NCBI GenBank assembly: GCA_963705155.1
Contig: CAVPJC010000001.1
Location: 431,088 to 495,087 of the forward strand
Direction of reading: 5' to 3'
DNA length: 64,000 nucleotides
DNA from: an uncultured Chloroflexia bacterium
GTDB taxonomy: Bacteria; Chloroflexota; Anaerolineae; Anaerolineales; UBA4823
Of the stretch, positions 306 to 27,570 are shown in pieces. Both the position numbers and the translations under genes were made by a program. The number at the start of each line of letters is the position of its first letter. The stretch's first letter is position 1. The notes beneath the pieces are model-generated. The model saw only the letters and a program-made list of their open reading frames with translations, was not told the origin of the DNA and did not search any database.

Positions 306-1574
306 ATGAAGCTGAATTATGGCAAGACCTTTCTGCTGGGTTTTGGTTTCTTCGGTGTGAGCGTGATCTGGGGGGTGTACAACGCCTTTGTGCCGGTCTT
401 CCTTGCTCAAAAATTTGGCCTGGATGTGGTCTGGATCGGCTTCTTTATGACCCTGGATAACATCGCCGCGCTGCTTATCCAGCCGCCAGTAGGTTCGTGG
501 TCCGACCGGCTGCGCACACCCATCGGGCGGCGTATGCCATTCATCTTGATCGGCGCCCCGCTGGGCGCGGTGGCGTTCGGCATTATCCCCATCGCGGGTG
601 TGCTGCCGCTGTTTGTCGCCTGCACGTCCACCCTGTTGTTGAGCATGGCCCTGTGGCGCACACCGGTGGTAGCGCTCATGCCAGATATCACTCCTTCGCA
701 GTTTCGCTCGCAGGCCAACGGCATCATCAACTTTATGGGGGGCGTGGGAGCGATCATCTCTTTCCTGGGCGGCTCGGCACTGTACCGCATCAACCCGGCT
801 TTCCCTTTCTGGTTGGGTTCGGTGCTGGTTGTGGCTGCCTCCCTGCTGGTGTTTGCCTTCATCAAGGAGCCGGAGGTTTACGAACACGGCGAGGCGCAGC
901 CGGGCATGCTCGCAAGCCTGCGTGAAGTTCTGGCAGATAACGATAAGAGCGCTTTGCGCATCCTGCTGGCTATCTTTTTCTGGTTCCTGGGCTACACCGC
1001 CGTTGAAGCCTTTTTCAATTTGTATGCCATCAACCACCTCGGGCTGGATGCCGCCGACGGCGCCGGCCTGCTGGGCCAGCTCTCGCTGATCTTTGTGCTG
1101 TTTGCGCTGCCATCCGGCTATATCGGCGGCAAAATCGGACGGCGTCCAACCATCCTCACCGGCATCCTGCTGATGAGCGCCGCCATGCTGGCAATGTTCG
1201 TATTACCGGCTGCCACCCTCACCATCCCGCTGGCGAAACTGCCCGTTCTGGGGCAGGTGCCGGTGGTGGGCCTGATCTTGATGTTTGCCGGCGCCGCCTG
1301 GGCGCTGATCAATATCAACTCGCTGCCCATGGTGGTAGATATGACCACCACCGCCCGGCTGGGCACTTACACCGGGCTGTACTACCTGTTTTCCACTTTT
1401 TCAGCCATCGTTGGACCGAACGTCAACGGCTGGGTCATCAAATTAACTGGCAATAACTATAACTCGATCATGATTGTGGCGCCTGTTTTTATGGCTGTGG
1501 CGCTGGTGATGATGTTGGGTGTGCACCGTGGTGAAGCAGCCCCGCAGGTGAAAACTGTTCCAGCCACCGATTGA
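306..1574 (+). CDS. MFS-type transporter
   Basis: Intact 422-aa ORF, hydrophobic throughout with about 12 helix-like segments. GAGGAGG sits 6 nt upstream of the ATG. Confidence 0.7.
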   Translation: MKLNYGKTFLLGFGFFGVSVIWGVYNAFVPVFLAQKFGLDVVWIGFFMTLDNIAALLIQPPVGSWSDRLRTPIGRRMPFILIGAPLGAVAFGIIPIAGVLPLFVACTSTLLLSMALWRTPVVALMPDITPSQFRSQANGIINFMGGVGAIISFLGGSALYRINPAFPFWLGSVLVVAASLLVFAFIKEPEVYEHGEAQPGMLASLREVLADNDKSALRILLAIFFWFLGYTAVEAFFNLYAINHLGLDAADGAGLLGQLSLIFVLFALPSGYIGGKIGRRPTILTGILLMSAAMLAMFVLPAATLTIPLAKLPVLGQVPVVGLILMFAGAAWALININSLPMVVDMTTTARLGTYTGLYYLFSTFSAIVGPNVNGWVIKLTGNNYNSIMIVAPVFMAVALVMMLGVHRGEAAPQVKTVPATD

Positions 1575-4005
1575 TGCCGGGCAGCGCACAGAATAAATTA
1601 TCAACTACCATGCAGCTTCAAAAACACCCGCCCCGGGTAAACCGGGGCGAATTCCTTTTCACAGTTTACCTGGGCTTATTGATCCTGGCCGGGGTAGCCA
1701 GCCGTTTCCTGTGGGTCAACTGGAGCCAGGGGGCTAACCTGCACCCCGATGAGTACGGCCTGACCAATACCCTCACCCAACTGGCTCTGCCAGAAAACCT
1801 GGATGGTTATTTCAACACGCGTCTTTCGCCGCTCAGCCCTTACCAGCGCTACGATGCCTCCGGGCAGGTCATTGCCAACGGCCCCGATAACGGCATGCGT
1901 TGGGGGCAATGGCCCATCATCCTCATCCGCTTTGCCGCACAGGCTTCAGGAAACACAGGCTACGACGAACTGCGCCTGATGGGGCGCACGCTGTCAGCCT
2001 TCGCCGACGCCCTTTCGCTTCTCCTGATCTACCTGACCGGGCAAGCGCCTGTACAATTCCAAAACCGGGCTGCTGGCAGCCGCATTGAGCGCTCTGGCGG
2101 TGATGCAGATCCAGCAGTCGCACTTTATGACCGTGGATAACTTCGGTGTGCTGTTCACCAGCCTGGGGATGTACGCTTGCGTGCGCATTGCCCAACAGCC
2201 GGTTGTCTTGCGTTCACCGGCCGTCACGGGAGTCCAGGGCGGCTACCGCCTCAATCGCCGGGTGCTTCCATGGTATGCGCTGTTCGGGACTGCTTTTGGC
2301 ATGGCGCTGGCTATCCAGGATCAACCTGCTCCCTCTGGGCGGCATGCTCTTTGTCGCCGCCTTTATCAGCGCCGCAGATTTGAAGCTCAAAACCCGCCAG
2401 GATCTGCAGCACATCCTTACCGGCAGCGCCATCTTCGTTGCCGGCGCCGTTTTGCTGTCGCTGGTCACGTTCCGCCTGACCCAGCCGATGAGCTTTCGGG
2501 CCGAGACCGGGGAGACCAGCCTCTTCACTTTGCATCTCAACCCCGATTGGGTGCGCAACATGACCGCCGCCCGCACCGAATTCGAATGGAATTGGCGGCG
2601 GGCCGCCGGGAGAGCAGTGGGCCCACCGCCCGGTCATCCTCTTCCCGCTTGCCAACATGCTGCTGTGGGGTCTGGGGCTGCCGCTGGGGGTGATGGCTGG
2701 GCCGGTCTGCTGCTGGCAGGCTGGCGAACGTTCAGGTTTGGGGAAGGCTGGAAAGCGCACCTGCTGCCCCTGGTTTGGACAGGCGGCTACTTCCTTTTTA
2801 TGGCAACCCGCTGGGTCAAATCGATCCGTTACTTTTTGCCGATCTACCCCTTTTTGTGCCTGTTTGCGGCCTGGGGTCTGCTGGAGCTGTGGCGGCGTGG
2901 GCGAACAACCCAGAACGGAGTGTCGAAACCGGCCCGCCTGATTCTGCCCGCAGCCCTCATCCTGCTGGTCACACTGGGCACGCTGGCCTGGGCCGGCGCT
3001 TTTGTCAATGCCGTCTACCGCACCGACCATACCCGTGTGCAAGCCACACGCTGGATCTATGAGAACATCCCGGCGCCGCTGCACCTGACCCTGTACGGAC
3101 GGGATGGCGCCGAGCTTCACCTGCCGCTGGCTGCCCCCGATGGGCTGCTGGTCAACGCTGCCGCGCCATATGTGCAGCCTTTCAGCCTGCCAACCGGAGC
3201 GAAGTTGGCAAGCGTGACGATCCCGCATGCATCTTCCGTAACCGGCGGCGGGTGGCTGCGCCTGGTGGTGGCAAGCGATGCCGGCGGGCTTTCGATACTC
3301 GATGAAACCGAAGTGATCCTGAATAACAAGCCTGGGCTTTTGCCGGGGCCATCGGTCCAGGCGCTCTTCCACCAGGTAGGGCTTGCCGCCGAGCAAATCT
3401 ACTACCTGATCGTATCGTCACCTGATGAACAGGGCGCCATCCTGTCTCGCAGCGTGATTGCCAACGAAAATTGGGATGAGGGTCTACCCTTCCCCTTTGA
3501 TGGGCGCGACCCGTTTGGGCAGCTTTACCGCGGCGCAACCATGGAAGTGCGCTGGTACGATGCCGAGAACAAACGCCAGATGTTTTTGGAAACCATCGCC
3601 CAGGCCGATTATATTATCCTGCCCAGCCAGCGCGGCATATGGACTACCTGCCGCATCCCGCGCACTTATCCCATGACCATGAACTACTACCGCGCCCTTT
3701 TTAACGGTCAGCTTGGTTTTGACCTGGCGGCGCAGTTCAGCTCCCCGTTTAAGTTGGGGGCGCTCTACATTTCGGATATTGGCGGCACCTGGGCCTGGGA
3801 TCGAGTACCACAGCTGCCGTTGTTTAACAACAGTCTACTCGCCGCGGAGGAGGCCTTCAGTGTCTATGATCACCCGCCCGTGTGGATCTTCAAAAAGCGG
3901 GCTGATTTCGACCTGGCACAGGTGCGCCGCCTGCTGGATGCAGTCGACCTGAGGCAGGTGGTGGTGCAGTCGCCCCGCAATGCAGATGGGGTTCCCTGCC
4001 AATAA
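1571..4005 (+). pseudogene. Large membrane glycosyltransferase (GT39/ArnT-like), broken by at least 3 frameshifts
   Basis: Track pieces 1571..2140, 2085..2693, 2657..2941 and 2146..4005 read as one protein when joined (...LLIYLTG|KRLYNSKTGLLAAALSALAVMQIQQSHF...). The first junction lies at a GGG run near 2040. The N-terminal half has many TM segments and the C-terminal half is soluble. Confidence 0.6.
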
Positions 4006-4041
4006 TCACTCCAACAGTCACCGATCCCTTTAGCATCGGCC

Positions 4042-4959
4042 TTACATGAATTTGGCCCAGTTTTCAACGCTTTCCTTATGCTCGTCTATGATCTGCTGAT
4101 CTGGCGTGTCAAAAGCATGGCCTATTTCAAAGAACAAGGGTAGATCTGGGAACGGTGAGCTTTTTGCAATTTCGATAACCAGATGGGGATCGATGATCCC
4201 CATCTGGTTATAAACCCTGGTAAAGGGCCAGTGGCGATCGGCTTTACCGTCGGTCTGCTGCAAGTGTATGACACGCGTCCAGGGCAGCAGGGTTTCCAGC
4301 CATACCATGGGGTCTCCTGGTTCAGGCAGATCAAACGAATTACAGTGACCCAGGTCGAAACACAGATGGACTGGGATCGGCAAGCCTTGATTAACTTCTT
4401 CCATTAAGTCAATTGCTTCTTGAGGCGTATGGGGAATCTCGCGCGGGGTTGGCATCGGCTCCCAGAGGAAATATTTTTGACCCAACCCTGCGGCAATCAT
4501 GGCCAGGCTGCGCACCGATTCCACCATTAAGGATCGGATCAGTGCGCGTCTCTCCGGATCGGCGTAGTCGGCGGCGCTCATCGCTCCAATAGCACCACCA
4601 CAGGCCTCCACTCCCAACCGTCTGGAAATTTCCAGAGCAGATTCATACCAGCGAAATGCATGCTCTCTCACATCCTGGTCAGGATGAGCCAGATGATTCT
4701 GGACATAAACGATAGTTCCTGTAAAAGAGGAATGCAAAAGCAGGCCATAGCGGTTAGCTGCTTCTGTTATCTCCGCACAGATTTTGCTGCGACCGGGTTC
4801 TGGCAGGGTTGGATCAAGCAAATCAAACGAGAATTGTACGTGTTTTAAACCCAATTCATCGGCGATGATTCTTGCCCACGCATCGGGTTCGGGCCATGTC
4901 TTTGCTGAAAAACCGTTGTTCACCCCTAAATGCAGTTTTGCAGACATTTTCCCCTCCAC
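4042..4959 (-). CDS. Sugar phosphate isomerase/epimerase (xylose-isomerase-like TIM barrel)
   Basis: Intact 305-aa ORF with the family-like pattern ...VQFSFD...HLCFDLGH...FFEIGH. Confidence 0.55.
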   Translation of the reverse strand: MEGKMSAKLHLGVNNGFSAKTWPEPDAWARIIADELGLKHVQFSFDLLDPTLPEPGRSKICAEITEAANRYGLLLHSSFTGTIVYVQNHLAHPDQDVREHAFRWYESALEISRRLGVEACGGAIGAMSAADYADPERRALIRSLMVESVRSLAMIAAGLGQKYFLWEPMPTPREIPHTPQEAIDLMEEVNQGLPIPVHLCFDLGHCNSFDLPEPGDPMVWLETLLPWTRVIHLQQTDGKADRHWPFTRVYNQMGIIDPHLVIEIAKSSPFPDLPLFFEIGHAFDTPDQQIIDEHKESVENWAKFM

Positions 4960-4985
4960 GTTTTCAGGGACTGCACATCGCTCTC

Positions 4986-6245
4986 TTACTCCGGGCTTAT
5001 CGTTGTTCCTGGATGCAAAATCGTGCTCTTTGGGATCACCACAATCCCATCCTGCACCACCCAGTTGCCCGCATCCAGATCGGTGCCGCGCGGGAAAGGC
5101 CGGATGACCACTCCTTCACCCATGCGCACATTCTTGTCGATGATCGCCCCTTCGATCTGGCAGTTCTTGCCGATCCCCAGCGGGATGCCGCCGCGCGGCG
5201 GGATGCCGGGCTCATCGTAGTAATCCGCCCCCATCAGGATCGTCTTGATCATCGTCACCCCGTCGTTGATCTGGCTGCGCAAACCAACAATGGCATCACT
5301 GATTTCCGCCTGCTGGATCTGGCAGCCGTCCGTCAGCAGCACGTTGTGCAGCCGCGCCCCATCGATCACCGATCCTGGCAGAAAGCGTGAGCGTGTATAG
5401 ATCGGGCGCACCGGGTCATAAAAATTGAACGGCGCATGCGGGCGCGTCAGGCTCAGGTTGGTCTCGTAAAACGAGCGAATCGTCCCGATATCCTCCCAGT
5501 AACCGTCGAAGTCAAAGCCAAACACGGTGTGGCTGCTGAGAGCGTTGGGGATGATCTGCCCGCCGAAGTCGTCGAAGGTGGAGCTTTCCAGCAGATCAAC
5601 CAGCACATCGGTGTTGAAAGCATAAATGCCCATCGATCCCAGGAACGGGCGCACCGGATCATCCCGGCTCACAAATTGCGCCTGCACGTCGGGGTCGCGC
5701 GGTTTTTCCACAAATGCTGTGATGCGCCCATCGTCGCCGCGTTTCAACAGCCCAAAGCGGGTAGCATCCACCGCCGCCACCGGCTGCACCGCCACTGTGA
5801 TATCGGCGTTGTTCTGCCAGTGGTACTGCATCATCTTATCGTAATCCATGCGGTAAAGATGATCTCCCGCCAGGATCACCACCTGCTCGGCTCCCGTGGC
5901 TTTGATTTCGAACAACTGCTTGCGCACCGCGTCAGCTGTGCCCTGGTACCAGTCTGAGCTGCGCAGCGTTTGCTCGGCTGCCAAAATTTGCACCCACCCC
6001 TGGTGGAAATCGTCGAAGGTGTACGTTTGCGTGATGTGCCGGTGCAGCGATACCGAATTGAACTGTGTCAGCACTGCAATACGGTGGATGCCCGAATTGA
6101 TACAGTTGCTGATCGGCACATCAATCAGCCGGTATTTACCGGCGATGGGCACCGCCGGCTTGGAGCGCTGTTTGGTCAGCGGGTACAGGCGTTTACCCAC
6201 CCCGCCCCCTAAAATAACTGCGACAACGTTACTTAAAGATGGCAT
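4986..6245 (-). CDS. glgC: Glucose-1-phosphate adenylyltransferase
   Basis: Intact 419-aa ORF. N-terminus [44 protein letters not shown] is the GlgC signature. AAGGAGGAG RBS upstream. Confidence 0.9.
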
Positions 6246-13645: not shown

Positions 13646-13793
13646 TCAGCACTCCTCGTCTGTCAAGAGGCTGGTCAGGTTCAACGCCGGCATTTTCGCA
13701 GAGCGCACTCCTGGCGTTAACTTCCCTGGCTGGGATATAAAAAAGAACCCCCGGCGGGCGTCCGCCAGGGGCTGAATATCAGCATGGATTTAG

Positions 13794-15555
13794 TTACTTG
13801 ACAACGGGCAGTTCGGCCGTCGTCCAGGCGCCCATCCCGCCAGCCAGGTTGCGCACATCGGTGTAACCCAGCATCTTCAGGGCCAGCATAGCCATCCCGC
13901 CGCGGTGACCCGGACTGGCACAGGATCACAATCTTGGCAGCCTTGTCGGGCAGTACACTCAGGTTGGCAATGAACTCATTGATCGGGATATTGATGGCGC
14001 CTTCCACGTGGCCTTCGGTGTAATTTTCAGGCGTACGCACATCCACGATGGTCAGGCCGCCGGTCGCAATCTCGGAGTTCAAATCAGGAGCCTTGACGGT
14101 GCTGAAGCCATCGGGCAGGGCGCTGATGGCGGCGTCCAGGTCAGCCAGCAGTTTGGCATCCACTGCGGGAGCAGCGCCGGCTGTGGGAGCAGCCGGAACG
14201 CCGGTTTCGACCGGGAATTCAGCTTTTTTCCAGGCAGCCAGACCGCCAGCCAGGTTGACCACGTCTTTCCAGCCCAGCAAGCGCAGGGCGGCGGTAATGA
14301 AAGAACCACGGTGCGCTGAGGCGCAGTAGACCACGATGGGCTGGTCGAAGGCCGGCAGCTTGTCCAGGTTTTTCATCACATCGCGCGTCGGGATATTAAC
14401 CGAGCCGGCAATATAGCCGTCTTTCTCAAGCTCAGCGGCTTCGCGCACATCCAGCAGGAAGGGCGGTTTATCCACCAGGGCGGTGTTGAGAACATCGGCC
14501 TTGATGGAATAGTAACCCTGGTCGGCCGGCAGGGCGCTCAGGAAATCGCCCCACAACTTGGTCCAATCCAGGGCGCCGCCCACCACGGGCATGCTGGCGG
14601 CTTTCCAGGCAGCGGTACCGCCGCCCAGATTGGTGACATTGGTGTAGCCCAGCATGCGCAGGGCCATCATCACCACCGCGCCGCGATGTCCGGAGGCGCA
14701 GGTGACTACAATGGCAGCATCTTTGGCGGGGAGCTGGTCCAGCTTGCCCAAAACCTCATTCAACGGCAGGTTGAGCGAGCCCTCGATATAACCGTCTTTC
14801 TCAAATTCGGCCGCGGCCCGCACATCCACGATGACAGGCGGGGTTGCACCGGTCAGGGCTTCGCCCAGTTTGTCGGCCTTGATGGTGTAGAAGCCTTTAT
14901 CGGCTGGCAAATTGCTGAGGAATTCATCCAGCGCGGTGAAGAGGGCGGCGTTCTCCACGATCGGCTTGCTCATCGCAGCCGGAGCAGCGGGCATGGATCC
15001 GGTCACAACCGGCAGCTCGGCCTTTTTCCAGGCGCCCAGACCCCCACCCAGGTTGCGCACATTGGTGTAACCCAGCAGGTGCAGCGCGGCAAACGCCATT
15101 CCACCGCGATGCCCCGAGGCGCAGTAAATGACGATGGGTTCGTCCAGACCAGGCAGCTTATCCAGATTCTTGAGAAGATCGCGCACCGGGATATGGACCG
15201 CGCCTTCGATGTAGCCATCCGCTTCGACTTCAGCCGGTTCACGCACATCCAGCAGGTAGGGAGCCGCGGTTGCAAGCTCTTCGCTCAATGTGGCTGGCTT
15301 GATGGTGCCGTAGCCTTTATCACCGGGCATGTAGGCGTCGATCATGCCCTGGAACAGCACCCCCCAATCGGGAGGCGGTTCGGGGGTAGGCTCCGGCGGA
15401 ACTGCCGTAGGCGGGACGGCGGTCGGCGCTTCGGTGACCACCGGTTGGGGAGCTTCAGTGACGACTTCCGGGGCCGCCGCGGGACTGGCGCATGCGCCCA
15501 GGATCATGCTCAAAATGATGAGCAGGGCAGATATGAGTTGGAATTTCTTGATCAT
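13794..15555 (-). pseudogene. Secreted lipoprotein with four tandem rhodanese (sulfurtransferase) domains, one frameshift near the 3' end
   Basis: AGGAGA RBS 8 nt before the ATG at 15555. Lipobox signal MIKKFQLISALLIILSMILGAC. Four repeats of ~130 aa each end in YCASGHRG, TCASGHRG, YCASAHRG and LCQSG(H)RG. An extra G at the GGG run near 13910 shifts the last ~40 codons. The corrected reading ends ...AWTTAELPVVK* with stop 13794-13796. Confidence 0.75.
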
Positions 15556-15617
15556 TGGGTTATTTCTCTCCTGTTTTTGGTTGGATATGACGCCCTTATG
15601 GGGCCTGGGTTGATGGG

Positions 15618-17055
15618 TTAGTTGTTCAGGCTCTTCCACAGCTGCCGGTATGGTTTGGATGATCACGTCCTGGTTCGCATCCAGTTCTTCAGGCCGAACT
15701 TTGTCGGCTGTCAGGAACAAATCCGGGTTGCCGTGGCACGCATTGCAGGTTTCGGCCTGCGGCGTTTTGGTCTGGGTATTATGCGGTGTGGCATAGGCCC
15801 AGGTGGGTAGCAGGTTAAAGTTGGGCAGCAGGTTCTCGCCGTAGAAGGCGTAGCTGTCCTGGGCCACCGGGATGTGCCGCACCGGGACGAATGCGTAAGG
15901 CCGGTCGTAGGTGCGGTCAGGGTTGCGCCCGATCAAGAACGTGAAATAGGTATTTTCGGTCTCGAAGAAGGGGTTGCCGGTCTTGTCACTAATGGCCACA
16001 TGGCAGCCATCGCAGCTGGTATAGGTGATGGAGTGGCACACCTGGCAGGAAAGATCGGTGCCGTGCTCGGCGTGCATGGCGATGCCGTCCTGCCCGGTGG
16101 TGACCGCTGAATGGCACGCTTCGCAAGACGGCAGCTGCACGCCCGAATAGCGGTGATCGGCCGGGGGCATCTCGGCAGCTTCCGGGCCTTCATGGCAGGC
16201 GCTGCAGTTAGAGTCCTGACCATGCAGCTCGTGGCTGCTGTGGCAGTCAATGCAGTTCATACGCCCCTCGCGGAAGTGCACATCGCCGGGGAATTCCTCA
16301 TTCTTACCCAGATATTCGTTGCCCACCCGGCTGCCGTGGCAGGCCGTGCACGAGCGTGTCATCGGCGGTGTCTTTTCAAAAAGATGCCCGCTGAACAAGC
16401 CGCCGCCCACGCTGGCCGGCTGGCTCACATGGCAGTCGCCGCAGGTTGTGTGGCAGCGCTCACAGTGGTTAGCAAACATTGTATCCAGCACGGGGTGGTT
16501 TTCGGGTACGCTGCGGGTGTACATGGTTGTGAAATAGCCGCGCTGCGTGGCGTGCAGGCTGTTGGCATATACGCCCGCAACATCCGGATGGCAGTCCTTG
16601 CAGACCGAATCTGGCCCATCGCTTGGGCGGGCGATGATGCCCGCGTGGGCGCTGTCTTTATCCGCTGATTGCACACCGCCGTGACAGCCGGTGCACGGCG
16701 TTTGCCCGTGAACGTTCTGGCTGAATTCCTCGTAATTAACGATCGCTTTTTCCCAGGGCTCCAACGGAGCCACATCGCCCCCTCAGCCAACCCCTTTGGA
16801 TTCAAATTCACCGGCTTCTTCCGGTTTAGCCGTATCGGTCAGGCGCTGCTGGTCCACATGGCAAGCCACACACTCATCCACCGGAACCGGGGTGGGCTCT
16901 ACGGCCAAGGCTGCTTGCAAAGCAGTGGGCGTGGGCTCTCCCTGCTGGCCGGCCGGAAAAGCCTGCTCGGCGGGTTGCAGGGATGCGTTTACGCCGCAGG
17001 CTGTCAGCAGCAGGGCACTGAAAAGCATAGCGATCACGTGTTTGTAAAAACTCAT
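15618..17055 (-). pseudogene. Multihaem c-type cytochrome lipoprotein (12 CxxCH), interrupted by an in-frame TGA and lacking a stop in its main frame
   Basis: Lipobox signal MSFYKHVIAMLFSALLLTACG starts at 17055. There is one CxxCH before the TGA at 16783-16785 and eleven after it (CTGCH, CKDCH, CERCH, CGDCH, CTACH, CIDCH, CSACH, CEACH, CQVCH, CDGCH, CNACH). The main frame runs without a stop into the rhodanese gene (track ORF 13717..16773). Alternative frames stop at 15618-15620 (...LWKSLNN*) or 15626-15628. Confidence 0.7.
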
Positions 17056-17151
17056 CAATACGCGCCTTTCGCTTGTAACGTTTTTCACGATTAGATTATA
17101 AAAGAAAATGTCATGCAAACAAGTGATAAACATAACATTTACTTATAGGTT

Positions 17152-17172
17152 CTGCTTATCCCATTTATAAGC
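17152..17172. promoter_or_regulatory. Candidate LysR-type box in the divergent intergenic region
   Basis: TGCTTAT-N7-ATAAGCA inverted repeat (T-N11-A architecture) in the AT-rich 195-bp spacer between the cytochrome gene (start 17055) and the lysR-like gene (start 17250). Confidence 0.3.
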
Positions 17173-17249
17173 ATAAACTATGCTAAAATGGCAAATATCA
17201 CTTGAATTACTTATTCATCTTGTGTTAAACTTCACAAGGAGAAGAGTCC

Positions 17250-18195
17250 ATGCTAGATATCCACCAGCTCAACGTTTTCCTGGCAGCCGCCGAAACCCTC
17301 AGCTTCACCCGGGCCGCTCAGAGGCTGCACATGACCCAGCCCAGCGTCAGCCAGCACGTGCAGGCGTTGGAACGCCGTTTTGGCAACGAATTGTTCATGC
17401 GCAACGGGCGCAGCCTGGAGCTGACCGATGCCGGTCTGGCCCTCGTCCCGCTTGCGCGCGAGGCCGTTTCCCTATCGGTGCGCACTGACGAAGCCATGAG
17501 CTCTGTCAAGGGTGATGTGGTCGGTCACTTGATGGTAGGCTGCAGCACCACCCCGGGCAAATACGTGCTCCCGCAGCTCCTGGCGCGCTTTCACCAGCGC
17601 TTTCCCCAGGTGCGCGCCACCTGCCAGGTGTCTTCCCAGCACATTGCCATGCAGCTTCTCAACGATGGCGGGGTACATTTTGCTCTCACCAGCATGCCAG
17701 AGGGCGCTCAGCCCGACCTGGAAATGCACCGCTTCCTGTGCGACCACGTCATTTTGATTGCTCCGCTCGACCATCCCTGGGCGCAGCAGGGTGCGATCGC
17801 CCCTCAAGAACTTCTCCAGGCGCCCTTTATCCAGCGCGAAGAAAGCTCTGGCACCTATGCCGCTGTCCGCGACGCCCTGGCTGCTGCCGGTATCTCGATC
17901 CATGACCTGGACACCCTGCTCACCCTGGGAAACTCTGAGGCCATTGCGATGGCTGTGCAGGAAAGCCTGGGGGTGGGGTTCATCTCTGAAATGGTCATCG
18001 ATCGGTTGGGAGCCGGACGTGTGGCCCGCATCGAGATCCGCGGCGTCCAGATCCAGACGCGATATCTACATCAGCCGTAACCTGCGCCGCCCGGCCACCG
18101 TTGCGCAGAATGCTTTTTGGGCTTTCATCCACAGCAAAGATAATCCGATTTATTGTGATGATATCCGTTCAGAGATATCTCCCGTTACCGAGTGA
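17250..18195 (+). pseudogene. LysR-family transcriptional regulator, one frameshift near the 3' end
   Basis: N-terminal HTH LNVFLAAAETLSFTRAAQRLHMTQPSVSQHVQALE. Piece 17250..18080 continues in the frame of 17758..18195 (...IRGVQI|RRDIYISRNLRRPATVAQNAFWAFI...) with the junction near 18050. Confidence 0.75.
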
Positions 18196-18202
18196 GGCAC
18201 TG

Positions 18203-19255
18203 ATGAAAAAACCCAACCCAGTTGTTCCACTGCGCTGGCCGATCCTGGCAGGCTGCCTGGTAGGGCTGCTCTCCATGCTCCTTACCATTGGGATGGCGAC
18301 CGCAGCCCCTCTCTCGCAGGATGCTCAGCCCACTCCCACCTTGCCTGCCGAGCTGGCAGACCAGGACTGCAAGCAATGCCACCTGGATATCGCCAACACC
18401 TGGAATTCCAGTCCGCATGCCCATGCCTTCGATGACCCCAATTTTCAGGCAAGCTGGACCGGCCAGGGCAGCCCCGGCGAATGCCTGCTCTGCCATACCA
18501 CCAACTATAACGCTTCGAATAACCTGTACACGGCTGAGGGTGTTTCTTGCGAGGCCTGCCATGGCAAGGTCGATGCAGGTCACCCCCCGTCCGTCGTGCC
18601 AATCCGCGCTGATACAGAATATTGTGGCTCGTGTCATACCACAACTCTGCACGAGTGGCGCCTCACCGGGCATGCCGGCGCCGATGTGGGCTGCATGGAT
18701 TGCCACGACCCGCACAGCCAGGATCGACTTTTTGAAGTCTCTGACGAATTGTGCATCAACTGTCATAAAGATTCGATGGAAAAATACCTGGAAGATTTGC
18801 ACATCCAGAAAAATATCGGTTGTGTGGATTGTCACGCCCTGGTCATCCCTCCTGAAATACCGCCTGCCGATGGCATCGTCCCCACCGGGCATACCTTCAC
18901 CATCACACCCGCCACCTGCGTGGCCTGCCACACCGACGCCCTGCACGCCGGCTTTTCCCTGCCCGGATATGAAAATGGCGCTAAAGCCGCCGTTACCACC
19001 ACGCTGACAGGCACGCTCACCACCACTCTGGAGACCAGCAGCGTGATCATCCCAGCAGCTGTCGAGGGGAGCGGGGCGCTCTCGGCCGAACAGCGCATCC
19101 AGGCCCTGGAAAGCACCCTGGCCAGCCGCCAGCTCGCCACCCTGTTCCAGGGCGGCATCATCGGCCTGGTATTGGGGAGCACCACCGCCTGGTTTGTGGC
19201 CCGCAATGTGCGCCGCTCGCTGGAGCTGGCCGAAGCCGACGAGGCTGGCTCGTAG
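18203..19255 (+). CDS. Octahaem c-type cytochrome with signal peptide and C-terminal TM anchor
   Basis: Start chosen at MKKPNPV (ATG 18203), followed by a hydrophobic signal ending ATAAP. Eight CxxCH motifs (CKQCH, CLLCH, CEACH, CGSCH, CMDCH, CINCH, CVDCH, CVACH). C-terminal helix LFQGGIIGLVLGSTTAWFVA. Confidence 0.8.
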   Translation: MKKPNPVVPLRWPILAGCLVGLLSMLLTIGMATAAPLSQDAQPTPTLPAELADQDCKQCHLDIANTWNSSPHAHAFDDPNFQASWTGQGSPGECLLCHTTNYNASNNLYTAEGVSCEACHGKVDAGHPPSVVPIRADTEYCGSCHTTTLHEWRLTGHAGADVGCMDCHDPHSQDRLFEVSDELCINCHKDSMEKYLEDLHIQKNIGCVDCHALVIPPEIPPADGIVPTGHTFTITPATCVACHTDALHAGFSLPGYENGAKAAVTTTLTGTLTTTLETSSVIIPAAVEGSGALSAEQRIQALESTLASRQLATLFQGGIIGLVLGSTTAWFVARNVRRSLELAEADEAGS

Positions 19256-19272
19256 AACCCGGGAGCACCGAT

Positions 19273-20130
19273 ATGGCTGAAGAACAAAACAAACCAGAGC
19301 CCAAACCCGTCCCTCCTAAAAATAAAAAAACGGCGCTGCTCACCCGTTCCGATTTTCTAAAAATTGCAGGGACTACGGCCGGCGCTGCCCTGGTTACCGA
19401 GCTGGTCATCACCGGGCCGCTCTCGGCCGAGGCCATCCGGGGCATCGGCGCTGAAGCGCACCCCCACCAGGGATCCACCGATCACGAATGGCACATGGCG
19501 ATTGACCTGTCGGAATGCATCGGCTGCGGTTACTGCATGAGCGCCTGCCAGGCGGTCAATGATGTTCCCGAGGATGAGATGCGCTGGAACATTGTCTTCC
19601 CTGAGCGCATGGAAGACGGCGTCGAGTTCTTTATGAACCGTCCCTGCCAGCACTGCCAGGAAGCCCCCTGCGTGCGCGTCTGTCCGGTGGGAGCCACCTG
19701 GGTGCGCCCGGATGGCATTGTTGCCATGGATTACACCCGCTGTATTGGCTGCCGCTATTGCGAAGTGGCCTGCCCCTATGATGTGCGCCGTTTCAACTGG
19801 AAAGACTCCGAGACAGCCAATCCCTACCAGCCGACCTGGGGTGAACCCGAAGTAGACCGCCGCCCACGCGGCGTGGTCGAAAAGTGCACCTTCTGCGTTC
19901 AGCGCATCGACCGCGGCTTGCAGCTCGGCCTCAAACCCGGCGTGGACCGGTCGGTTACTCCGGCCTGTGTGGAAATCTGCCCGGTGAATGCACGCGTGTT
20001 TGGCGATATCCTCGACCCCGAAAGCCCCGTCTCACGCTTCTTGCGCCAGCATGACACTTTCCGCCTGCGCGAAGAATGGGGCACACAGCCAAAAGTGCAT
20101 TATGTGCGCCCGCAGAAAGAGGAGGCCTGA
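19273..20130 (+). CDS. 4x[4Fe-4S] ferredoxin-type subunit (NrfC/PsrB-like) with Tat-like leader
   Basis: Intact 285-aa ORF with four cysteine clusters (CIGCGYCMSAC, CQHCQEAPCVRVCP, CIGCRYCEVACP, CTFC...CVEICP). The leader ...LLTRSDFLKIAGTTAGAALV resembles a Tat signal but has a single Arg. Confidence 0.85.
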   Translation: MAEEQNKPEPKPVPPKNKKTALLTRSDFLKIAGTTAGAALVTELVITGPLSAEAIRGIGAEAHPHQGSTDHEWHMAIDLSECIGCGYCMSACQAVNDVPEDEMRWNIVFPERMEDGVEFFMNRPCQHCQEAPCVRVCPVGATWVRPDGIVAMDYTRCIGCRYCEVACPYDVRRFNWKDSETANPYQPTWGEPEVDRRPRGVVEKCTFCVQRIDRGLQLGLKPGVDRSVTPACVEICPVNARVFGDILDPESPVSRFLRQHDTFRLREEWGTQPKVHYVRPQKEEA

Positions 20131-20131
20131 C

Positions 20132-21367
20132 ATGGCAGCCAGTGCAAGTGTCTTTTCGCGTCCCGGCAGCCGGCCGTTTTTGCTCTGGCTGGTGGCTCTG
20201 GGGGTGGTCTTCCTGGCCGGTGTGTACGGCATGTCGCAGGTACTGCTGCATGGTCTGCAGGTCACCGGCCTCACCGACCGGGTTCCCTGGGGATTATGGA
20301 TTACGCTCGATCTTTCAGGGATCGGCCTGGGCGCCGGCGCCTTTACCTTCTCGGCAGCCGTTTACCTTTTCCGCATTAAACGATTGGAATCATTAGCACG
20401 CCCGGCCGTCTTCATCGGTTTTCTGGGCTACACCGCGGCCATGCTGGCTCTCGCCATGGATATCGGCCGTCCCGACCGCTTCTGGCACCCCCTGGTATAC
20501 TGGAACGTTCACTCTGTATTGTGGGAAATCACCTGGTGCGTGGTGCTCTATTCCACCGTGCTCATGCTCGAAGTGCTGCCCCTGGTGTTGGAGAGCCGCT
20601 TCTTTGACCGCTGGCCTGGTCTGCGCAAAGCCAGTCATAACCTGCACCGCCTCACCCCGATCCTGGCGGTGGTGGGCATGGGCCTCTCCCTGCTGCACCA
20701 GTCATCTCTGGGCGCCACCTATGGCGTGCTCAGCGGCCGCGCCATCTGGTTCAAGCCCTCCCTGCCCATTATGTTCATCATCTCCGCGGTTGCCGGGGGC
20801 ATGTCCCTCACCCTGCTGGCAACCATGATCACCTCCACACTCACCCATCGCTCCCTGGTGAGCGTGGAGGTCAAACGTGAAGTAGCCCGCGCCATCGGGT
20901 ATACCACCCTGGCCTATCTCTACATCAAACTGTGGGATTGGGCGGTCACATCCTATTACAGCCATTCCCCGGGCGCCGCCAGCGCCCTGGAGCGGCTGCA
21001 ATCCACCACCCCCTATACCACCACTTTCTGGGGATTGGAAATTCTGCTGGGGGGGGTTATCCCGGCGGTCATACTGCTCTACCGCCCCCTGCGCCGTAAT
21101 AACAAGGCGCTTGGCGTGGCCCTGGCGCTGATCGTCTTCAGCCTGGTGGTCAACCGCTGGAATGTCACCCTTTCGGGGCTGGTGGCGCCTCCCGATTGGT
21201 CTCCCGGTGTGTTGGGAGACGTGGTATCCGCCACCTACCTCCCTACTGGCATCGAAATCCTGGTTGCGCTGGGCATCATTGCCTACGCCCTGCTCGGTTT
21301 TACCCTGGGAGCGCGCTTCCTGCCGATCTTCTCCAGCAAGAAAACAACCCACGAGTCCGCCGATTGA
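20132..21367 (+). CDS. NrfD/PsrC-type polytopic membrane quinol-interacting subunit
   Basis: Start at ATG 20132, one nt after the preceding stop (the track ORF 19988.. begins in the upstream gene). About 410 aa and hydrophobic throughout, with the NrfD-family-like N-terminus ...HGLQVTGLTDRVPWGLWITLDLSGIGLGAG. Confidence 0.8.
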   Translation: MAASASVFSRPGSRPFLLWLVALGVVFLAGVYGMSQVLLHGLQVTGLTDRVPWGLWITLDLSGIGLGAGAFTFSAAVYLFRIKRLESLARPAVFIGFLGYTAAMLALAMDIGRPDRFWHPLVYWNVHSVLWEITWCVVLYSTVLMLEVLPLVLESRFFDRWPGLRKASHNLHRLTPILAVVGMGLSLLHQSSLGATYGVLSGRAIWFKPSLPIMFIISAVAGGMSLTLLATMITSTLTHRSLVSVEVKREVARAIGYTTLAYLYIKLWDWAVTSYYSHSPGAASALERLQSTTPYTTTFWGLEILLGGVIPAVILLYRPLRRNNKALGVALALIVFSLVVNRWNVTLSGLVAPPDWSPGVLGDVVSATYLPTGIEILVALGIIAYALLGFTLGARFLPIFSSKKTTHESAD

Positions 21368-21387
21368 TCACCTCGCCTTAAAAATCA

Positions 21388-21424
21388 AGCCTGCCCGTTT
21401 CTCGCGCCGGGCAGGCTTTTTTTT
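21388..21424 (+). terminator. Rho-independent terminator closing the cytochrome-nrfCD operon
   Basis: Perfect 10-bp stem AGCCTGCCCG/CGGGCAGGCT with a 10-nt loop, followed by T8. Confidence 0.75.
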
Positions 21425-21463
21425 ATCAGGGACACTCTCCTGAATTTGTTCTATGTGAATGAT

Positions 21464-25422: not shown

Positions 25423-26760
25423 CTAGCGTACCTTCAGCCATTCCGAAATTATCTGCCGGGCCAATTCAACTGCTTCATCGGGAACTGAGATGCGCTTAAT
25501 GGTGGAACTGAGCGACAGCGTAGCATCCACGATCATCTTTGGCTCCCATACCATTTTCTGAAGATGGATCCAGTTGGTTACACAGCACCCCTGGCAAGAT
25601 CATCACATCTTTGTCCGCCTGCATTCGGGTTGCTACAGACCACCAAACTGCCTGGTCATTGCTCGGGTCAATGTCGCCGTCCACCACCACCACCAGCTTC
25701 AGGTAATGATCTAACCCCAACAGCAAGATCGCCGCTTGCTGCGCTTGCCCTTCCGCGGTTTTGTTGATCTGCAGGATGCAAATGGAAATGCGTGCCCGAA
25801 GCCGGGTAGTAAATGCTACTGTAATAGGGCAGTACTTCTCTCATCTGCTTGTGCACCCACGCCTCTTTCGACGCCCGACCCAGGTTCAGGTGGTCGCTGG
25901 AATTCCCCGGCGCCAAATCAACAAAGATCGGGTCTACCCGCCGGGTGATGGCGGTCACTTCCATCACGTTTTGAGTAGACCAGCTCGAGCGCGTAGCCGG
26001 TATACTCCCCAAACGGGCCTTCTGGCTCACGGGCAATTTGCCCTCAAAAAGCCTTCGATGACGATCTCCGCATAGGCCGGCACATCCACATCTACCGTCT
26101 TCGCCCGACAAATATCAAGTGGCACGTCGGCAAGGCCCCTGCCAATTCATATTCATCCTGGTCCATTCCCATTTTGGCCGCAGCGGCCAACATCACCGCC
26201 GGATGCCCGCCGATCACCACACACACTGGCAAGTCTCGGCCGGCCAGCTCAGATCGCCGGAAGTAATCCCATAAGTGCTGACGGCTGTGAAGGCTGGCTC
26301 CCATGCGTCTCGGACCTTTCACCTGCAAGCGCATGTACGACAGGTTATTGCAGCCAGTGTCTTCGGATACTCGCCGCGGCCATCCCCGCTGTGATATACG
26401 GGCCTGCGTCCTGCTCAAAGTGAACGGGAATGGGAAGCTGGGTCAAATCAGCTTGCTCTCCTAACAGCACCACATCCTGCACCGGCCCGCCATCCCCACG
26501 TTTGGGCGCCACCAGATGGTCCAGGGCATGTCCAAGGCGGTCATAAAAGCCGTGAGGCACTACTCCCACGGCAAAGGACATGATCTCCCGGCTGGCAAAA
26601 AGGATTCGCTGCCATACGGTGGGGTGAATTGCCCATCTGTTCGAAAAAGAACAGCGGGATCTGGCGCTGATCCTCCAATTCCATGGCCATTGCCATCGAT
26701 GTGTAGCCAGCACCACCGATACTAAGACATCAAGAATAGGTGAGGAGAGTCTATTCCACA
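25423..26760 (-). pseudogene. UbiD-family (prFMN-type) decarboxylase, at least 4 frameshifts
   Basis: Pieces 26345..26890, 26092..26418, 25668..26111 and 25496..25726 carry UbiD-like segments (GPVQDVVLLGEQADLTQLPIPVHFEQDAGPYITAGM; VCVVIGGHPAVMLAAAAKM; YYPASGTHFH; LVVVVDGDIDPSNDQAVWW). The C-terminus re-reads as ...AKMIVDATLSLSSTIKRISVPDEAVELARQIISEWLKVR* with stop 25423-25425. The 5' end is approximate. Confidence 0.7.
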
Positions 26761-26765
26761 AGTTT

Positions 26766-27570
26766 TCAGGAATGAGCGTAAGTCTGGCTGCGGTTGAAGT
26801 AGTTAGGGGCTTGTTCTCTCGCTTCTCGTACTGAAGCGATGCCTTCCAGGGCAACTTGAATGGCGTTCTCCCATCCCTGAACCGACCCATAGTTTACATC
26901 TTCGTAGATTACATCGTTTTCCACCAGGTTCCCGGAAACGGCGCACACCATCACGGCATTCAGACCGCGTAGATGGGCGATGATAAAGATCGCTGACGCC
27001 TCCATTTCTAGATTCAAGATCTTGCTGCCGATAGCCTGGCGATGAATTCGGAATTATCGCCATAGAAGGCATCGTCCGAGGCGCTTAAGCCCACGTGTAG
27101 CGGGTAGCCGCCATCCTTTTGCAGCCTGCGTGCGGCCTGGGATCAGCTCGTGTGTTAGGAAATGGTCGGGCACTGCCGGAAAACCCTCACCGGCATAGAA
27201 ACGTGTCGTGCCTTCGTTGCGCATCGCCCCGGTGGCGATCACCAGATCGCCGATGCGCATGCCCGGCTGGAACGCACCGGTGCTGCCCACACGGATGAAA
27301 TGAGTGGCGCCCACGTTCGCCAGCTCCTCGACGGCGATCGCCGCAGATGGGCAGCCAATCCCCGTGGATGTGGCGCTGACCGGGATACCTTTATAAGAAC
27401 CTGTCCAGGTACAAAATTCGCGATTGTAGGCGATTTCCCGGGCTTCATCCAGATATTTGGCAATGCGAAGCACCGATCGGGGTCGCCTAAAAGCAAGACG
27501 TAATTTCCACATCTCCAGGCGCCACTTGCAGGTGATACTGTTTTCTACCCAGTGTTTTTGATGCTTTATC
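26766..27570 (-). pseudogene. Nucleoside phosphorylase, Udp/DeoD (PNP_UDP_1) type, paralogue 1, at least 4 frameshifts
   Basis: Core STGIGCPSAAIAVEELANVGATHFIRVGSTGA...GDLVIATGAMRNEGTTRFY lies in 27054..27572. The C-terminal part NLEMEASAIFIIAHLRGL... lies in 26766..27017. N-terminal YHLQVAPGDV / YVLLLGDPDR segments sit in other frames. Confidence 0.7.

Follow-up and report, generated by a model that had tools for sequence, protein, structure and literature searches.

What chemistry is served by a gene cluster in which two lipoproteins, a 12-haem cytochrome c and a protein built of four rhodanese domains, face an octahaem cytochrome and an NrfC/NrfD-type pair across a LysR-type regulator? The question is raised by a six-gene locus lying in 64,000 nucleotides of DNA (the window, in the following) from an uncultured Chloroflexia bacterium of the order Anaerolineales (assembly GCA_963705155.1, contig CAVPJC010000001.1, positions 431,088 to 495,087). 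An earlier note on this DNA had suggested a conduit running from quinol to sulfane sulfur, with haems in place of a molybdenum subunit. The 12-haem cytochrome carries a conserved in-frame UGA and is, in all likelihood, a selenoprotein; the selenocysteine (Sec) codon and the rhodanese gene are kept together, and lost together, among relatives. The locus looks like a Chloroflexota counterpart of the haem-selenium polysulfide reductase of Geobacter, previously undescribed. Its core, on the minus strand, is made of the following features.

16783-16785, minus strand: in-frame UGA, predicted selenocysteine codon for residue 91; motif ESKGVG-U-GGDVAPLEPWEK
16757-16771, minus strand: hairpin of the selenocysteine insertion sequence (SECIS) type, GGCUCC-GUU-GGAGCC, whose stem begins 11 nt past the UGA
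15556-17055, minus strand: 12-haem lipoprotein cytochrome c gene, very probable selenoprotein; ATG at 17055, no in-frame stop as assembled
13794-15555, minus strand: tetra-rhodanese lipoprotein gene, 586 aa once an extra G at 13909-13911 is removed

A very probable selenocysteine codon in the 12-haem cytochrome

In a protein search, the nearest homologues of the cytochrome (65–83% identity) all measure about 385 aa and start exactly past the TGA position; more distant ones are full length. Three contigs encoding close homologues feature the same six-gene arrangement in different genomic surroundings, the cytochrome being split into open reading frames (ORFs) of 94–111 aa and about 390 aa. The junction is a TGA triplet in each, set within ESKGVG-TGA-GG[DE]VAPLEPWEK. 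Relatives were collected by two scans of one-genome-per-species collections, one made with the rhodanese, the other with a cytochrome alignment. The latter detected 432 stretches encoding a relative and, together with contig look-ups, provided 101 distinct loci (numbered L), nearly all from metagenome-assembled genomes (MAGs) of Anaerolineae and other Chloroflexota. The arrangement is far beyond chance, since it recurs in about 100 species-level loci.

TGA marks the Sec position in 95 of the 101 distinct loci, and neither TAA nor TAG was ever found there. TGT (Cys) occurs in one locus (L040) and TGG (Trp) in four (L041, L042, L109 and L056, of which L041 and L042 are near-identical contigs from two samples); one more (L029) is unclassifiable, as the frame is broken at this point. 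Most non-Sec homologues have Trp, Leu, Phe or Ser at the Sec position. Flanking peptides are conserved on both sides, reading ES[KE]G[VA]G upstream and GGxVAPLEPWEK downstream of the TGA. The Sec site lies near the N-terminus, between haems 1 and 2. Eleven of the 12 haem sites are encoded past the UGA, in a part which lacks a separate signal peptide; as this part must be exported, it is taken to form a single chain with the N-terminal one. In the Cys-type homologue (protein P0118 of L040) the TGT codon is found in the context GPGCGG, and both the hairpin and the rhodanese gene are kept. No conserved Cys was found outside the CxxCH haem motifs among 85 full-length Sec-type sequences, Sec being the sole conserved residue of the Cys class outside the motifs. 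Three features generic to bacterial selenoproteins are present: a conserved UGA with coding conservation at both sides, a bacterial SECIS (bSECIS), and a Cys homologue.

One Sec-type homologue resides outside Chloroflexota, in a MAG labelled Acidimicrobiaceae (L030, about 8.8–12.3 kb). There, a shorter rhodanese-domain match is located upstream, not downstream, of the cytochrome, and a variant hairpin, GCCUC-AGGUA-GAGGC, is found at the same place. Many truncated cytochrome ORFs of 380–415 aa (P0002, P0003, P0006, P0018 and others) are named 'thiosulfate/3-mercaptopyruvate sulfurtransferase' by JGI. No rhodanese domain is present in them, and the label is probably a spill-over from the annotation of the neighbouring gene.

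TGA is the ordinary stop of the window lysR gene and of several orthologous cytochromes. Since the triplet thus ends genes in the usual way in these loci, an alternative genetic code is ruled out and the recoding would be site-specific.

The window features four irregularities of two kinds, the in-frame TGA at 16785-16783 and three insertion-like changes of 1 nt. In the rhodanese gene the extra G falls within the fourth catalytic loop; in lysR a surplus A stands at 18057, and the corrected stop comes 7 nt before the octahaem start; the cytochrome, as assembled, lacks an in-frame stop, and its ORF continues into the rhodanese gene (region 15618-15640). The probable true stop is the TAA at 15620-15618, now one base out of frame, and the spacing of about 60 nt given in the earlier note for the two lipoprotein genes depends on it. 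A genuine cytochrome-rhodanese fusion is ruled out, as every relative has a stop. The relatives all have these genes intact, with the cytochrome stop 364–434 codons past the TGA. A UbiD-family gene at 25496-26890 is split into four same-strand ORFs. The occurrence of three single-base insertion-like defects within 4.5 kb may denote an error-prone assembly or a strain gathering frameshifts. Because relatives are all intact and the UbiD gene is also fragmented, assembly error looks like the simplest reading of the three indels.

The TGA could also be viewed as a nonsense mutation or a sequencing error, and the locus as a set of pseudogenes, given the 1-nt frameshifts in the rhodanese and lysR genes, the missing cytochrome stop and the fragmented UbiD gene. 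This is highly improbable. The triplet recurs in 95 independent assemblies together with its peptide context and its hairpin, which rules it out as a pseudogene lesion or sequencing error, and the three true defects, absent from all relatives, look like single-base insertions, typical of assembly error. Of the frame breaks first noticed in this DNA, those in the rhodanese gene, in lysR and at the cytochrome stop hold as 1-nt defects, while the TGA is a conserved recoding site.

The SECIS-type hairpin

The hairpin features a 6-bp stem (nt 15–20 paired to nt 24–29, numbered from the U of the UGA) and a GUU loop (nt 21–23). A bSECIS is a stem-loop found just downstream of the UGA, with a small apical loop that has a G in the first two positions and lies 16–37 nt from the codon (PMC13188914). 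The hairpin conforms to this rule, with a small, G-first loop located about 17 nt past the codon. Codons +4 to +8, which encode the hairpin (GTG GCT CCG TTG GAG), show zero third-position variation in 94 loci; at neighbouring, equally invariant Gly and Pro codons, third-position variation amounts to 1.2–1.4 bits. Bases are paired in 99.8% of the hairpin pair cells. One pair is G-C in 90 sequences, C-G in three and G-U in one; the C-G variant results from a two-sided change, by which the peptide becomes VPPLEAW.

Of the Trp-type loci, L041 and L109 have lost the hairpin, while L056, converted recently, retains it through a compensated change; the Cys-type L040 has kept it. No Rfam SECIS family matched it. 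As its folding energy is unexceptional when compared to shuffles (z = -0.03), the argument for the hairpin is made on conservation, not on energy.

Linkage of the Sec codon to the rhodanese lipoprotein gene

The 12-haem cytochrome has the lipobox LLTAC and exactly 12 CxxCH motifs. The adjacent rhodanese gene starts at the ATG at 15555, preceded by an AGGAG ribosome-binding site, and its product features the lipobox ILGAC followed by a Pro/Thr/Ala-rich linker. PF00581 is matched four times (E 7e-80), and the four six-residue loops that include the catalytic Cys read CASGHR (twice), CASAHR and CQSGHR, the fourth being restored by the deletion of one G. Both lipoboxes, called by pattern matching, fit [LVI][ASTVIG][GAS]C and are also kept in homologues. 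The two proteins are therefore as the earlier note had described them, a minus-strand lipobox cytochrome with 12 haem motifs (ATG at 17055) and a lipobox protein made of four rhodanese repeats with their catalytic loops.

In the Sec- and Cys-type loci for which enough downstream sequence is available (about 95), a rhodanese lipoprotein gene directly follows the cytochrome in all. Four catalytic loops are present in 73 loci, and the other complete downstream genes encode rhodaneses with fewer motif matches, as the two-domain CYTGHT form found in L045. Rhodanese orthologues located behind Sec-type cytochromes measure 570–615 aa. The reverse search leads to the same picture: in the rhodanese scan the four-domain form was identified in 25 species-level loci, with a Sec-type cytochrome directly upstream in each, and the other 10 matches are weak and fall outside Chloroflexota.

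Six distinct loci feature Trp, Leu or Phe at the Sec position (L041/42, L109, L056, L122, L123, L124). The rhodanese is lacking in all six, and the divergent cytochrome-NrfC-NrfD trio is kept in all six. In other respects L041, L122 and L123 share the gene order of the Sec-type L001, with the same HTH-cupin and AspRS genes downstream. L056 is 82% identical to the Sec-type L005 and its lysR is decayed, which makes the joint loss of Sec and rhodanese a recent one in this locus. Identity of L041 and L109 to any other member of the set does not exceed 57%; with L056 so close to L005, the joint loss took place at least twice. This co-variation, expressed as raw counts uncorrected for phylogeny, provides the strongest evidence that the rhodanese may serve chemistry at the Sec residue. 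Joint action of the 12-haem lipoprotein and the rhodanese, put forward in the earlier note, gains strong support from the comparison of loci, the two being adjacent in about 95 Sec/Cys loci and the rhodanese being absent from the six non-Sec ones. The two proteins are probably coupled functionally in the redox chemistry of sulfur or selenium. The Sec-cytochrome and the rhodanese, along with LysR, make up the conserved core of the locus.

The Trp-, Leu- and Phe-type homologues retain the quinol trio and the 12-haem lipoprotein without a rhodanese. A bare version of the system thus exists, and the Sec-type locus could be viewed as a plain extracellular electron conduit to Fe(III), humics or partner cells, with Sec and rhodanese as accessories for maturation or protection. 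This is quite unlikely, as it leaves the Sec-rhodanese pair unexplained. The costly Sec residue is conserved in about 95% of the loci and strictly tied to a catalytically intact multi-rhodanese, and chemistry at the Sec residue, rather than simple electron transfer, would therefore be at stake.

Quinol module and divergent control region

The remaining features of the locus are the divergent control region, the plus-strand operon and the terminators closing the two arms.

17056-17249, no strand: divergent control region between cytochrome and lysR, AT-rich, 194 bp
17250-18195, plus strand: LysR-type regulator (HTH_1 and LysR_substrate domains), 314 aa without the extra A at 18057
18203-19255, plus strand: octahaem cytochrome c, with 8 CxxCH, N-terminal signal and C-terminal transmembrane anchor
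19273-20130, plus strand: NrfC/PsrB-type 4x[4Fe-4S] protein, 16 Cys (Fer4_11, Fer4_7)
20132-21367, plus strand: NrfD/PsrC-type integral membrane quinone-interacting subunit (PF03916, E 3e-30)
21387-21428, plus strand: intrinsic terminator, end of lysR-octahaem-nrfC-nrfD; stem GCCTGCCCG...CGGGCAGGC followed by eight T
13746-13773, minus strand: intrinsic terminator, end of the cytochrome-rhodanese operon; 12-bp stem with 9 G-C pairs and a T-run, 21 nt past the rhodanese stop

Gaps of 7, 17 and 1 nt separate lysR from the octahaem gene, the latter from nrfC, and nrfC from nrfD, in agreement with the gene order and the 1–17 nt gaps first reported. The AT-rich spacer, previously given as 195 bp, measures 194 bp. 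The strong terminator noticed after nrfD is present, and was read by eye, since the scanner missed it because of a loop >8 nt; the second terminator follows the rhodanese gene. Unrelated housekeeping genes flank the locus, encoding dNK, Band 7 and GntR proteins at one side, OsmC, MFS and ArsR proteins at the other. The N-terminal region of the NrfC-type protein (window 19273-19440) features a Tat-like leader, L-T-R-S-D-F-L-K, with a single Arg in place of the canonical twin-arginine, and the leader is kept in the L056 orthologue.

Linkage of the two arms was assessed in 68 Sec-type loci having at least 6 kb of upstream sequence. A trio adjoins the LysR gene in 34 of them, corresponding to about half of the species. 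Close octahaem-NrfC-NrfD orthologues are found in 27 loci, 25 of which have them adjoining a divergent lysR; in 7 the trio is more divergent and has the same composition (e.g., L121). The octahaem protein matches the Pfam families Cytochrome_C554, C7 and Paired_CXXCH, and its orthologues, 54–73% identical, are located correspondingly in the trioA loci. The Sec-cytochrome/rhodanese core is often, though not obligatorily, accompanied by the quinol module. A complete absence of linkage between the arms in relatives, named in the earlier note as a refutation, is not observed.

Loci without a trio often feature a 13th haem at the cytochrome C-terminus, a lysR gene downstream of the rhodanese, and a membrane HdrD/DsrK-like CCG protein. 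The latter, a 661-aa membrane-anchored Fe-S protein with CCG domains, is encoded just downstream of the cytochrome-rhodanese(-LysR) unit in 27 loci, including L006, L007, L013, L015, L026 and L065-L071 (e.g., L121, 13319-15304). It is found mainly where no NrfCD trio adjoins, and the cytochrome has there a 13th, C-terminal CxxCH. In five loci (L120, positions 634-5339; L085, L104, L105, L109) a YeeE/YedE and molybdenum-oxidoreductase cluster is located next to the trio. The cluster encodes a split YeeE/YedE-type (Sulf_transp) transporter and a Psr-like molybdopterin oxidoreductase, the latter with its Fe-S subunit, as well as an ArsR-type regulator, a CxxCH protein and a small membrane protein. 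The Psr-like enzyme of L120 gave no tblastn match in the 64-kb window, in line with the claim that the module lacks a molybdopterin subunit. These neighbours, YeeE/YedE with the molybdenum oxidoreductase and DsrK/HdrD-like proteins alike, would fit sulfur or selenium chemistry.

Alignment of the divergent spacers of 20 loci revealed a TTGTGAA-N8-CACAA dyad, repeated LysR-type CTTAT-N7-ATAAG dyads, a TTG...TATAAT promoter directed towards the cytochrome and, immediately ahead of its start, a GTGA-N-ACAA box. These blocks recur in the window spacer and in the equivalent spacers of L001-L053. A simple scan of the spacers for perfect T-N11-A dyads gave nothing consistent. The TTGTGAA dyad is CRP/FNR-like and lies on the lysR side of the spacer. 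A deletion has removed the first CTTAT dyad block from the Trp-type L041 and L109. Conservation of the spacer is compatible with joint control of both arms by LysR.

Comparison with known systems

The 12-haem protein has no NCBIfam match at E <= 0.01, and only generic cytochrome domains are identified by Pfam. By sequence or profile it has no significant relative in the PDB, where only marginal NrfA/ONR-like segments were detected, and Foldseek comparison of a mediocre model of P0118 to the PDB gave nothing below E = 1.8. An unnamed 278-residue 'Cytochrome c' (PDB 28pb_A) is the best solved match to both the octahaem protein (E 3e-7) and the 12-haem profile (E 4e-7), over about 100 residues each. 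A catalogue of prokaryotic selenoprotein families of May 2026 includes four cytochrome-related or CXXCH entries: ExtKL, the GSU2204-family CXXCH protein, UshA-like proteins and an OTR-family octahaem cytochrome. The 12-haem selenoprotein is absent from it and Chloroflexota are not mentioned there; no description of the 12-haem family was found in papers on the cytochromes of Ardenticatena, or on multihaem, rhodanese and NrfD proteins of Chloroflexi. The family is apparently uncatalogued.

The closest parallel is MccSep of Geobacter sulfurreducens, a pentahaem selenoprotein encoded by extK and extL and long annotated as two genes (PMC13510729, PMC5877670). In August 2026 MccSep was demonstrated to reduce polysulfide in a Sec-dependent manner and to be required for elemental sulfur (S0) respiration; it also reduces selenite, and a Sec-Se-S-S-Cys intermediate, reduced by haem, has been proposed (PMC13510729). 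Its genes, part of extHIJKLMNOPQS, adjoin that of the rhodanese lipoprotein ExtH and a cytochrome-rich cluster for quinol oxidation (PMC13510729, PMC5877670). MccSep thus offers an experimental precedent for the earlier proposal of haems in place of the molybdenum subunit (PMC13510729). The Chloroflexota protein resembles it in being an exported multihaem cytochrome c with one Sec, specified by UGA and a downstream hairpin, and first annotated as two ORFs; in both systems the gene adjoins one for a rhodanese-like lipoprotein, along with multihaem cytochromes and a membrane quinol-oxidising module.

The differences are many. CxxCH motifs are 12 here and 5 in MccSep. The Sec site is G-V-G-U-G-G between haems 1 and 2 here, and a D-G-U-P loop of a C-terminal Ig-like domain in MccSep. 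A conserved non-motif Cys ligates the active-site haem in MccSep, and has no counterpart among the 85 Sec-type sequences. The MccSep model (NF040886) does not match the 12-haem protein, and gives only a weak, 24-bit N-terminal match with the octahaem one. The 12-haem cytochrome is a lipoprotein of a probably monoderm cell, MccSep a soluble periplasmic tetramer. A four-domain rhodanese and an NrfCD-type quinol module, without porin, are found here, a quinol module of the Rieske/cytochrome b type there, in a different phylum. The 12-haem protein is thus not a member of the MccSep/ExtKL family.

The top NCBIfam model for the window LysR is NF040786, the selenium-metabolism-associated LysR (217.8 bits, under the cut-off of 250), and the rhodanese domains match NF041203, the rhodanese-related (seleno)protein. 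They share with NF041203 and with PspE/GlpE the domain and the six-residue CxSGHR-type loop; in contrast to these, four domains are fused behind a lipobox and linker, and Ser replaces the Sec of the C-A-U form. Such matches raise the possibility that the locus is dedicated to selenium, reducing extracellular selenite or Se(0) for detoxification, respiration or acquisition, with the rhodaneses carrying perselenide. Reduction of selenite by MccSep, the implication of ExtI/ExtH in selenite handling (PMC13510729, PMC5877670) and the presence of YedE-type transporters in some related loci point in the same direction. Selenium dedication is nonetheless improbable: the LysR score is below cut-off, MccSep prefers polysulfide over selenite about sevenfold (PMC13510729), and selenium is scarce in most of the habitats from which the MAGs come (groundwater, sludge, sediment), yet the locus is found in >400 species-level genomes.

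The plus-strand trio may be compared to several complexes. In Wolinella succinogenes, the NrfC/NrfD-type pair of PsrABC couples quinol to a sulfur reductase, and the rhodanese-like sulfur transferase Sud presents polysulfide sulfur. The locus likewise features a four-cluster NrfC-type protein (16 Cys), an NrfD-type anchor (PF03916) and a rhodanese-like carrier. Unlike PsrABC, it has no molybdopterin catalytic subunit (none between 13.7 and 21.5 kb), which haems and Sec would replace, and an octahaem protein stands between NrfC and the terminal enzyme. The same make-up of cytochrome c, NrfC-like and NrfD-like subunits is found in Qrc, Nhc/Hmc and Geobacter Cbc-type complexes, and matches to QrcD, HmcC, QrcC, DsrO and HmcB were found. 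All scores except that of DsrO are far under cut-offs, QrcB and HmcD-F are absent, and the octahaem protein differs in its C-terminal anchor. The NrfC-type protein scores 203.8 bits with DsrO (cut-off 200) and 173 with QrcC (cut-off 400). DsrP gives 69 bits (cut-off 350), and DsrM, K and J are missing from the locus. Among solved structures, the NrfC-type protein is nearest to the ActB Fe-S domain of alternative complex III (ACIII, ActABCDEF; E 1e-39 to 1e-34), ArrB, and PsrB (2vpw, E 3.5e-34). ACIII is also found in Chloroflexota; it differs in having two NrfD-like subunits, not one, and a Mo-like ActB N-domain as well as ActA- and ActE-type cytochromes, which lack counterparts here. The NrfD-type protein has no sequence match in the PDB, and its best NCBIfam models are QrcD (283 bits, cut-off 570) and HmcC (180 bits). 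The profile search suggested in the earlier note, therefore, places the trio in no characterised complex: the cut-off of DsrO is exceeded, but its partners DsrM, K, J and P are absent.

The resemblance of NrfD to QrcD, a menaquinone reductase subunit, and of NrfC to DsrO and QrcC, makes it conceivable that electrons flow in the opposite direction. The Sec-cytochrome and the rhodaneses would then oxidise sulfide, persulfide or thiosulfate, and electrons would enter the quinone pool through octahaem, NrfC and NrfD, as in Qrc or TsdA/SoxAX. According to its authors, the MccSep mechanism may be the reverse of thiosulfate oxidation by TsdA/SoxAX (PMC13510729), and HdrD/DsrK-like CCG proteins recur beside relatives. 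An oxidative role seems unlikely. The scores are well under family cut-offs, and the direction is unreadable from them; the sole characterised haem-Sec enzyme is reductive, and the locus has neither a terminal oxidase nor another acceptor module linked to it.

Proposed function

The reading slightly favoured here is that the locus encodes a cell-surface, Sec-dependent multihaem reductase of sulfane sulfur, which would work reductively and be fed by quinol. The reductive path is proposed by virtue of the analogy to MccSep and of the Sec-rhodanese co-variation. Menaquinol would be oxidised in the membrane by NrfD, and electrons would flow through the four [4Fe-4S] clusters of NrfC to the anchored octahaem protein, and hence to the 12-haem lipoprotein. 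Both the cytochrome and the rhodanese would be tethered via long Pro/Thr/Ala linkers. The four rhodanese domains would load sulfane sulfur as Cys-persulfides and offer it to Sec91, whose selenolate may attack the sulfur to form a Se-S intermediate; sulfide would be released by haem-delivered electrons. Since the cytochrome has no conserved partner Cys, a rhodanese Cys is proposed to act as the thiol partner in trans. LysR would govern both divergent operons from the common spacer. The most likely substrate would be sulfane sulfur, in the form of polysulfide, S0-derived sulfur or protein persulfide, with selenite as an alternative or side substrate. A more tentative suggestion is that this selenoprotein family, marked by 12–13 haems and a G-x-G-U-G-G motif, may represent a convergent haem-Sec sulfur reductase which receives its thiol partner in trans from a tethered multi-rhodanese.

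Several points weigh against a quinol-fed reductase of this kind. A search of the window and of about 60 flanking loci detected neither Sec-insertion genes nor a tRNA-Sec, the only tRNA in the window being a tRNA-Leu. An adjacent trio is missing within 10 kb in 34 of the 68 Sec-type loci, and NrfD is closest to QrcD, which belongs to a quinone reductase working in the opposite direction. The Sec site is not homologous to that of MccSep and the haem-ligating Cys is not conserved, so that the analogy is functional only. Confidence in the structure of the Sec loop is low, as the AlphaFold2 model of the Cys-type P0118 has a mean pLDDT (predicted local distance difference test) of 66.8, and values <50 around the loop. 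Finally, three window genes have 1-nt defects, and the locus could be decaying in this strain.

Significance

Reduction of polysulfide by a haem-Sec enzyme was first shown in 2026, for MccSep, and the Chloroflexota locus suggests that the same chemical solution has been reached from unrelated parts. The family is mis-annotated in hundreds of genomes, either as two hypothetical ORFs or as a 'sulfurtransferase', so that metabolic reconstructions miss its selenium dependence and its likely part in the cycling of sulfur or selenium. The joint loss of Sec and rhodanese is a natural experiment, which provides a testable hypothesis on how sulfane sulfur is handed over from rhodaneses to a redox enzyme; Sec and non-Sec forms separate the catalytic version from the bare electron-conduit version of the same module. 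Chloroflexota rank among the most abundant bacteria of anaerobic digesters, activated sludge, sediments and groundwater, and little is known of how they respire. If the proposed function is true, Anaerolineae would respire S0 or polysulfide (or selenite) at the cell surface, by means of an enzyme family found in several hundred species and in at least one MAG labelled Acidimicrobiaceae.

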